This document shows positions 2,058 through 3,131 of a stretch of 64,000 nucleotides of DNA, piece by piece. Source of the DNA: Escherichia coli (GTDB lineage: Bacteria > Pseudomonadota > Gammaproteobacteria > Enterobacterales > Enterobacteriaceae); NCBI RefSeq assembly GCF_003334335.1, contig NZ_QOWQ01000009.1. The stretch is one strand, 5' to 3'. Every line of letters starts with the position of its first letter. The stretch's first letter is position 1. A model generated the notes under the pieces. The model made no database searches, had not been told where the DNA came from, and saw only the letters and a program-made list of their open reading frames with translations. The position numbers and the translations under genes were made by a program.

Positions 2058-3131
2058 CTACTGATACTGTATGCCAGTATGTTTCATGCCTGCCGCTGAA
2101 AACGGCAATATCCAGGGCCAGATATATTCACCATTCATATTTCTGCATTTCTGTACAATTTTCTCAGAAAGTGTCTCATCAATTCTTTCACGCAACTTCT
2201 CCTGCTGTCTTAAAATACTTTCGCATATTTCGAAATCATCTTCCTGCATCAGCATTTCGGCGCATTTAATGATTTCTGCCCGTTCATGCAGCACAGAGGA
2301 ATGATTATAGAGCCAGCTTACAAACAGCAATGCTTCCGGATATTGCCCCCATAACGGGTGGTATGTGGCATAATAATCTTCGGCAGTATCCGGACCGCCT
2401 GAAAAGTTATGCCATACAGCAAGTGGAAATGGATGCAGATTTCCGCACAGTATTTCTGCGATGTAAGTATTTGCCGCAAAGCCGCGACGAAGTGCAGTTG
2501 CAGCTTTTACCAGTTCCCCATTAAGAAAATGCAGAAGGCCGAGTTCATACCAGTAAGGTGAAAATTCATCTGCATGTTCCTGCAGTATATGGCGTGCCTG
2601 TTCATGAGCGCCAGTGCGTAACAGTTCCGGTCCCAGTAGCCAGCGTGCACCATGATTATCTTCGGGATTGTAATCCAGTATTTTTTCAATGAGCATGATG
2701 GCATCCTGATGACGCCGTAAATGTGCATTTGCCAGGATTGCCGCATAGAGGGCACGAAGAAAAGGTCGGTTGTCAGGATGTATCCAGATGATTCTGCCAC
2801 TGAAACCTTCAGGGATAAGACGATTGCCAACTGCCAGCCCTTTAAGGGCAGCATTCAGCGCCTTACGCGGGGCATTCTGCTCCAGAAATACGTATGCCAA
2901 GTGAGCGTGTACATCAATAAAGTCATTCTCCTGTCGGGCAAGGCGCCTGAGTTTGTTGATGTAACTTGTTTCGCTGATTTCATCCGCATCGTATGCATCA
3001 ATCAGTTCTTCAAACTCATCCAGCAACGAGCCAAACCAGGTTTCCGGAAATATGAAACAGCCCTGGTTATCGTTCACTTCAAAGCGTAATTTGCCAGTCA
3101 TATTCTGAACCTGTAAAAAAGGATGGACCAT
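2058..3131 (-). CDS. Hypothetical protein, island cargo, no family recognised
   Basis: Uninterrupted 357-aa ORF co-directional with and 225 bp downstream of the integrase; I recognise no catalytic motif. Start is uncertain (a second in-frame Met lies 10 codons in). Confidence 0.6.
   Translation of the reverse strand: MVHPFLQVQNMTGKLRFEVNDNQGCFIFPETWFGSLLDEFEELIDAYDADEISETSYINKLRRLARQENDFIDVHAHLAYVFLEQNAPRKALNAALKGLAVGNRLIPEGFSGRIIWIHPDNRPFLRALYAAILANAHLRRHQDAIMLIEKILDYNPEDNHGARWLLGPELLRTGAHEQARHILQEHADEFSPYWYELGLLHFLNGELVKAATALRRGFAANTYIAEILCGNLHPFPLAVWHNFSGGPDTAEDYYATYHPLWGQYPEALLFVSWLYNHSSVLHERAEIIKCAEMLMQEDDFEICESILRQQEKLRERIDETLSEKIVQKCRNMNGEYIWPWILPFSAAGMKHTGIQYQ

Follow-up and report, generated by a model that had tools for sequence, protein, structure and literature searches.

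The locus described here raises two connected questions: what does the first gene behind the integrase of a tRNA-associated genomic island encode, and where does its product act? The analyzed window is a stretch of 64,000 nucleotides (nt) from Escherichia coli (RefSeq assembly GCF_003334335.1, contig NZ_QOWQ01000009.1), read 5' to 3' on one strand. The gene in question is an open reading frame (ORF) of 357 amino acids (aa) at 2058..3131, on the minus strand of the window. The original prediction had singled it out as a long intact ORF next to an integrase, and this description is confirmed.

The ORF is sisA. It represents one allele of the ShiA/SisA/SisB family of tetratricopeptide repeat (TPR) proteins and follows, as first cargo gene, the integrase of an island inserted at pheU. 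The gene itself is known: it is a homolog of Shigella shiA, has been named since 2003-2009, is listed as a virulence determinant, and mutant phenotypes have been published; its earlier standing as a candidate for something undescribed is therefore lost. What is new here is a model of the protein as a helical solenoid, the wide spread of the family among non-pathogens without a partner gene, and its recurrence next to recombinase genes. The reading that we favor, with a probability of about 0.5, is that SisA is a protein-binding scaffold that acts inside the bacterium and that its effect on the host is indirect.

The question of mechanism matters because sisA and shiA regularly appear in lists of virulence markers. 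The solenoid model, together with a short list of conserved surface residues, makes this question testable, as do a controlled profile match to the eukaryotic TCF25/Rqc1 core and the spread of the family in non-pathogens, and the distribution of the family suggests that its primary role is not host-directed. If that role proved to be intrabacterial or linked to mobile elements, the treatment of sisA and shiA as host-directed virulence factors in genomic surveillance would have to be rethought.

Identification of the gene as sisA

According to the original prediction, the ORF could not be assigned to any family; database names, a close AlphaFold-DB match and published primers now place it in the ShiA/SisA TPR family. 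The best AlphaFold-DB match of the window protein is Q6KD66, "ShiA homolog [Escherichia coli]", which has 357 aa and is 99% identical. The sequences of the sisA primers for quantitative polymerase chain reaction are printed in Hagan et al. 2010 (PMC2978726), and both match the window without any mismatch, at 2860-2879 on the minus strand and at 2577-2601 on the plus strand. The window protein is 98.8-99.1% identical to the E. coli cluster members P0135 ("ShiA-like protein") and P0137, and 83.0% identical to the Shigella flexneri protein P0122; the published identities to ShiA are 83.3% for SisA and 96.8% for SisB (PMC13340028). In UniRef, members of the 90%-identity cluster are named "ShiA-like protein" and the Pseudomonas homologs "SHI-2 pathogenicity island protein", and RefSeq labels the gene "tetratricopeptide repeat protein" or "hypothetical protein". 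ShiA of the S. flexneri SHI-2 island (at selC) and SisA and SisB of E. coli CFT073 thus belong to the same family as the window copy, which falls in the SisA allele class.

The features that define the gene and its insertion site are the following.

2058..3101, minus strand: coding sequence of sisA, beginning at the conserved ATG; 347 aa, about 40 kDa, isoelectric point 5.4; corresponds to a coding sequence of 1044 base pairs (bp) annotated by RefSeq in an identical strain
3357..4622, minus strand: P4-type tyrosine integrase, 421 aa; NCBIfam PRK09692 integrase domain, E = 5.7e-74; RefSeq annotation
4820..4895, minus strand: tRNA-Phe (pheU), the integration site and island boundary; ARAGORN and the annotation of the identical strain N10

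The longest form of the ORF extends to an upstream ATG at 3131 (357 aa). The conserved start is the second ATG, at 3101 (residue M11), which gives 347 aa, because the homologs (335-347 aa) align from M11. The in-frame ATG upstream of this start is missing in two other sisA alleles, and the DNA homology shared with two other islands starts at window position 3118.

The ORF lies downstream of the P4-type integrase across a gap of 225-255 bp, and the order on the minus strand is tRNA-Phe, the 421-aa integrase, the ORF at 2058-3131 and a 76-aa ORF. The predicted cargo position on a tRNA-associated island is thus borne out: sisA is the first cargo gene after the integrase, with tRNA-Phe upstream. 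The site is pheU, because the core genes dicD/yjdC, dsbD, cutA, dcuA and aspA follow the tRNA. In other tRNA-associated islands with ShiA, SisA or SisB, the gene likewise comes first after the integrase, and the order recurs at pheV and selC. Module I of the LAA island consists of sisA, a phosphoethanolamine transferase gene and an outer membrane protein gene (hes), as described in sources that include a 2020 review (PMC7545054), and strain N10 shows exactly this layout. The window copy, at pheU, has a layout like that of LAA module I, in contrast to the SHI-2 copy, which resides at selC and is linked to the aerobactin genes; the window copy also differs in that its island is cut by IS1414 and its allele is mosaic, with an apparent breakpoint near 2400.

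The ORF is a real gene, because it is annotated in RefSeq, its divergent alleles differ mostly by synonymous substitutions, with a ratio of nonsynonymous to synonymous substitution rates (dN/dS) of 0.13-0.17, and 2,534 of the 5,426 complete E. coli genomes carry sisA, in allele classes of about 99, 92, 86 and 71% DNA identity. The gene is under purifying selection. A degraded remnant, the outcome that would have dispelled the original interest in this ORF, can be set aside: the ORF is intact, its dN/dS is low, and expression in urinary infection is on record, sisA having been expressed in vivo in the urine of six of eight infected women (PMC2978726). Induction of shiA under anaerobiosis has been reported. 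The suggestion that the ORF is the intact form of a gene present as a fragment in K-12 finds no support at the leuX locus, where blastn and tblastn found no piece of sisA; the K-12 locus reads intB', IS2 and the yjgX pseudogene.

The alleles of sisA in E. coli are mosaic. In comparison with the selC island, identity rises from about 80% to 98-100% near window position 2400: the block 1657-2400, which holds the 3' third of sisA, a hairpin and the 76-aa ORF, is 98-100% identical, in contrast to about 80% for the 5' two-thirds of the gene. This pattern would imply either that sisA contains a recombination breakpoint or that a 3' element is under strong conservation.

Published phenotypes

According to later summaries, ShiA of the SHI-2 island dampens, in Shigella models, both inflammation and the innate response of T cells (Ingersoll 2003, 2006), and sisA and sisB of CFT073 are implicated in suppression of the host response in urinary infection (Lloyd 2009). 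In the same vein, loss of shiA in Shigella, or of sisA and sisB in uropathogenic E. coli, is reported to lead to more host inflammation. The literature consulted, from which the primary papers Lloyd 2009 and Ingersoll 2006 were missing, gives no molecular mechanism for ShiA or SisA.

Predicted structure of SisA

For SisA, Pfam and NCBIfam return only weak TPR matches (Pfam E of about 0.004) and no nucleotide-binding, nuclease, membrane or other enzymatic signature, in agreement with the original prediction. There is no signal peptide and no hydrophobic segment in the protein, the maximum Kyte-Doolittle hydropathy over 19 residues being 0.88. From an alignment of 32 homologs (mean column identity 59%, 42 invariant positions), AlphaFold2 produced an almost wholly helical model, with a predicted local distance difference test (pLDDT) score of 90.2 and a predicted template modeling (pTM) score of 0.84. 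The model consists of a short N-terminal beta-hairpin, some 17 helices arranged as a solenoid and a small C-terminal hairpin. Comparison with the consensus TPR by hhalign located three canonical TPRs at approximately residues 127-221; the match to the consensus CTPR8 had an E-value of 1.4e-5 with the close-homolog profile and of 1.3e-15 over 94 columns with the broad profile. Sequence searches of the PDB with the close-homolog profile gave generic TPR matches only, and with the broad profile generic TPR proteins dominated, Rqc1 not being among the best 60 matches listed. The homology and structure searches proposed with the original prediction yielded the TPR solenoid model and a fold match to TCF25/Rqc1. 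On the strength of the model and these searches, SisA is predicted to be a soluble, acidic helical repeat scaffold of about 40 kDa with no export signal, membrane segment or enzymatic domain.

A 2020 review (PMC7545054) terms ShiA a putative quinone reductase. We rejected this label: no oxidoreductase or flavodoxin-type domain was detected, and Pfam, NCBIfam, PDB sequence and fold searches lead to TPR or TCF25-like proteins only.

Probable relationship to TCF25/Rqc1

In a Foldseek search with the SisA model, Rqc1 had the best query-normalized TM-score (0.52), and the matches in the AlphaFold database included bacterial proteins of about 270 aa, one of which is annotated as TCF25. For profile comparisons, a human TCF25 core sequence served as bait only (it matched Rqc1 with an E-value of 7.6e-18); the genuine TCF25 proteins retrieved with this bait, all but a few short fragments of which carry PF04910, were aligned (alignment A2). 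The ShiA family was represented by two profiles, one of close homologs (A1; number of effective sequences, Neff, 2.6) and one of 75 family representatives (A3).

The A3 profile matched the TCF25 profile by hhalign with a probability of 97.3% and an E-value of 2e-11 over 245 columns, in contrast to decoys made by reversing the TCF25 alignment or shuffling its columns, which gave E-values of 0.6-0.9. The TCF25 profile had no match to the consensus TPR (E = 0.42), so the similarity between SisA and TCF25 is not of the generic repeat kind. Residues 1-118 (E = 5e-6) and 119-221 (E = 1e-5) of SisA match TCF25 separately and in the same register, and the C-terminal third, residues 222-347, has no TCF25 match by hhalign. 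The aligned part corresponds to SisA residues 16-207 and is collinear with the TCF25/Rqc1 core. The Pfam Tcf25 model matches 11 of the 75 family representatives at E <= 1e-3 (best 3.2e-10); for SisA itself it gives no match at E <= 10. The most conserved columns of the two families coincide at P59/P283, D63/D287, A81/A305, F100/F324, W106/Y335, D110/E339, N111/N340, R112/R341 and D148/D378 (SisA/TCF25). The cores of SisA and TCF25/Rqc1 are probably homologous, a claim that was retained on the strength of the broader profile and the decoy controls; our literature search found no paper that links ShiA with TCF25.

SisA and TCF25/Rqc1 share the core and its conserved columns, and Rqc1 is the best structural match; SisA differs in lacking the basic N-terminal region and the RING-binding helices of TCF25, and its C-terminal third is without similarity. 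A further difference is that E. coli is not known to have Listerin or ubiquitin. Published work describes TCF25 as binding a RING domain and orienting the acceptor ubiquitin. The RING-contact helices of TCF25 (human aa 188-202, with F195) lie N-terminal to the aligned part, which begins at approximately human aa 250, and the C-terminal ubiquitin contacts (aa 534-642) are outside the region of detectable similarity to SisA. The ubiquitin-contact residue F298 of TCF25 aligns with E74 of SisA, in a column that is E or D in the ShiA family. That the kinship amounts to homology of the core alone is quite probable, and much likelier than a kept function. The latter would make ShiA, SisA and SisB bacterial members of the TCF25/Rqc1 superfamily that retain a TCF25-like activity, docking on a conjugation or quality-control machine and orienting a small modifier, with either host ubiquitin and its conjugating enzyme (E2) or ligase (E3), or a bacterial ribosome-associated or ubiquitin-like system exploited by mobile elements, as the target. 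We consider such retention distinctly unlikely. If it were true, host ubiquitin with E2/E3 as the target would explain the suppressed inflammation directly.

A direct action on the host could also be envisaged: SisA or ShiA, either released by intracellular bacteria or exported along an unknown route, would reach the cytosol of the host cell and bias inflammatory ubiquitin-chain signaling through a TCF25/Rqc1-like engagement of ubiquitin, an E2 or a RING E3. The homology of the core to a protein that binds RING and orients acceptor ubiquitin fits this proposal, as do the published host-inflammatory phenotypes, and another Shigella factor offers a precedent: OspI is described as a factor that dampens inflammation via the host ubiquitin-conjugating enzyme UBC13. 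However, SisA has no signal peptide, members of the family are common among free-living bacteria of soil and water, and the parts of TCF25 that contact RING and, at the C-terminus, ubiquitin fall outside the aligned region, with F298 replaced by an acidic residue. We regard direct host action as unlikely.

Distribution and gene neighborhoods of the family

Full-length homologs with 33-55% identity are present in Morganella, Xenorhabdus, Pseudomonas, Massilia, Duganella, Trinickia and Rubrivivax, and also in Rhizobium, Mesorhizobium, Paracoccus, Myxococcota, Acidobacteria and Verrucomicrobium; when the cluster representatives were all searched, 173 scored below an E-value of 1e-30. The ShiA family is common in non-pathogens, including free-living soil and water bacteria, and is a stand-alone gene on mobile elements.

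The original prediction had proposed a search for a conserved partner gene. When all ORFs within 8 kb of the family gene were clustered for 39 loci, none emerged: the top neighbor family, HipA-like as assigned by eye, was present at five of the 39 loci, and the other families, each at 3-4 loci, were core genes or encoded AbiEi, HsdM or TssF. The neighborhoods are of a mobile or variable type, with genes for HipA-like proteins, AbiEi, Fic, type I restriction-modification, SbcCD-like proteins, SIR2 with SMC, HNH and NERD-UvrD proteins and relaxases, along with insertion sequences; in one lineage, the gene resides in a conjugative element beside TraG, TraI and FlhDC-like genes. The prediction had also linked the position of the ORF with defense genes; PADLOC-DB 2.0 gives no support, with 0 families matching SisA at E <= 1, and in PHROGs SisA has only a 12-bit match at chance level.

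Two further candidates for functional hints were rejected. An AAA ATPase gene downstream of the family gene is confined to one lineage of related elements, and N-terminal extensions of the proteins are heterogeneous, with none recurring save in one related pair; one extension is a chimera with an ABC transporter that arose by misassembly or frameshift.

The most divergent members (33-43% identity; L047 from Duganella, L048 from Erwinia typographi and L049 from Massilia eburnea) are located within type VI secretion clusters, where they adjoin TssG or VgrG (NCBIfam) and a TssF-like gene (by eye), a context unlike that of the other members. One locus, L013, is a 3.5-kb contig labeled as a metagenome-assembled genome of Collinsella sp., with tRNA-Sec, an integrase and a shiA-type gene whose product is 83% identical to SisA; it is probably E. 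coli or Shigella DNA binned in an actinobacterial genome, that is, contamination.

Association with recombinases

The order tRNA (Phe or Sec), integrase, sisA is found in five independent E. coli islands, and in two more with insertion sequences in between. The integrases of the E. coli islands are only 41-44% identical to each other, against 83-86% for the SisA proteins. A gene for a 703-aa tyrosine recombinase is directly upstream of the family gene in Rubrivivax and strain AAP65. In Morganella and Xenorhabdus, the family gene lies between a divergent Tn3-family transposase gene and a serine resolvase gene, and its stop codon overlaps the resolvase start or is 4 nt from it; a metagenome lineage has the same overlapping pair, and on Pseudomonas amygdali plasmids the pair has no more than a transposase fragment in its vicinity. 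The TPR proteins of these pairs are 61-73% identical and the resolvases 59-87%. A tRNA gene is directly upstream of the family gene in Trinickia and Roseiarcus.

These arrangements suggest a service to the mobile element: sisA would be an accessory gene, co-expressed with the recombinase, that aids integration, excision, resolution, maintenance or establishment, possibly through defense or anti-defense, and its anti-inflammatory effect would be a side effect. Apart from the constancy of SisA behind divergent integrases, the tyrosine recombinase and resolvase pairings and the tRNA-adjacent copies, the lineage in a conjugative element and the mobile and defense-type neighbors described above all speak for such a role. 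The slot in the Tn3-type loci can further be likened to that of toxin-antitoxin pairs, which are reportedly located between tnpA and tnpR, directly upstream of tnpR. The likeness is by position only, the SisA family being a single scaffold of 340 aa, not known for any addiction or stabilization activity, and not a pair. Lima-Mendez et al. 2020 (PMC7157771) describe toxin-antitoxin pairs as integral to Tn3-family transposition modules. On the other side, adjacency to a recombinase is not universal, being missing at most alpha- and betaproteobacterial loci; PADLOC and PHROGs are without a match; integrase-proximal slots also gather ordinary cargo; and a scaffold alone offers no evident mechanism. 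A role for SisA in the service of mobile elements is, in our estimate, a possibility to be held tentatively rather than a probable explanation.

The Tn3-type pairs are at L054 3149-4901, L060 1688-3442, L058 4816-6283 and L055 5739-7577. In three Tn3-type loci, a conserved stretch of about 70 nt, recognized by eye, lies upstream and may be a res site or a promoter.

Rap-type TPR regulators, such as RapI of ICEBs1, resemble SisA at the generic TPR level only. Rap proteins are found in Gram-positive bacteria, and, in contrast to the Rap system, there is no gene for a Phr-like secreted peptide at sisA. The 76-aa ORF was considered as such a peptide and rejected, as it has no signal sequence and is frameshifted in one island.

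Proposed mode of action

In the reading of SisA as an intrabacterial scaffold, the conserved surface around W106, N111-R112 and D148 and their neighbors would bind a widely conserved bacterial protein or peptide; binding would change bacterial physiology or the behavior of the mobile element; and the lower inflammation would follow indirectly, not from a toxin-like or enzymatic action on host cells. Action inside the bacterium is favored because the family is conserved in non-pathogens and has no conserved neighbor gene, and the binding partner would have to be widely conserved because the gene spreads alone across phyla.

Several points weigh against this reading or against the structural kinship that accompanies it. 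The kinship with a eukaryotic ubiquitination cofactor would be compatible with a direct target in the host. The kinship is itself open to challenge: with close homologs only (A1), hhalign gave the TCF25 match a probability of just 19%, and TPR-rich profiles are prone to spurious profile matches. Finally, in a 2026 study of the LAA island, a deletion that included sisA lowered virulence and reduced biofilm formation; the effect of sisA is not isolated by this deletion, because hes and part of atoS were removed too.

Other features of the island

The remaining features around sisA in the window are these.

3205..3233, minus strand: candidate sigma-70-like promoter of sisA; TTACCA, 17-nt spacer, TATTAT (consensus scan); precedes the ATG at 3101 by about 100 nt
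1966..1986, minus strand: candidate terminator, a GC-rich hairpin of 9 bp (6 G-C) with a T-rich tail, about 70 nt past the sisA stop codon
1685..1915, minus strand: 76-aa ORF downstream of sisA; RefSeq hypothetical; within the 3' block that is 98-100% identical between islands
196..1698, plus strand: YjgX-like phosphoethanolamine transferase, 500 aa, convergent with sisA; NCBIfam CptA/EptA-type, E = 8e-31; RefSeq annotation
1..77, plus strand: end of a copy of IS1414 (IS256-like), at the window edge, left of position 78

The scan that yielded the candidate promoter found 8 sites in the region, compared with 5.1 expected by chance, and is weak evidence for this site. The hairpin falls within the block that is 98-100% conserved between islands, and in the 76-aa ORF, frameshifted in one island as noted above, substitutions are too few to judge coding.

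The convergent transferase gene suggests one more explanation, namely that SisA, from the cytoplasm, regulates the adjacent sulfatase-family transferase or serves as its adaptor and that the two jointly modify the envelope so that the bacterium becomes less inflammatory. A convergent phosphoethanolamine or sulfatase-type transferase gene follows sisA in four of the seven E. coli contexts with an intact copy; two types of the enzyme, of 500 and 557 aa and only 27% identical, fill the same convergent position (window 196-1698; L051 5213-6886; L053 5173-6846); and the leuX locus of K-12 keeps the transferase pseudogene yjgX next to intB, in the absence of sisA. However, no such transferase is a neighbor of the family gene outside E. 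coli, several E. coli islands have no transferase, and convergent genes do not form an operon. We consider this pairing very unlikely as an account of how SisA acts.

In O157:H7 and other enterohemorrhagic E. coli, a degraded copy of sisA, about 71% identical, lies next to iha in the tellurite/iha island (L010 7001-7887), where the annotation shows only a hypothetical coding sequence of 219 bp. In the window, the point at which IS1414 interrupts the island precedes the phosphoethanolamine transferase gene by about 118 bp; strain N10 is otherwise identical and has a different sequence from the same point, with a hes-like outer membrane protein gene ending just before it. Further in, the pheU island of N10 (L001 1-10400) encodes type I restriction-modification, a DEAD/DEAH helicase, a 5'-nucleotidase and a second integrase fragment, and it also holds a pseudogene of a phosphorothioate-dependent restriction endonuclease, which makes it a composite island rich in defense genes.

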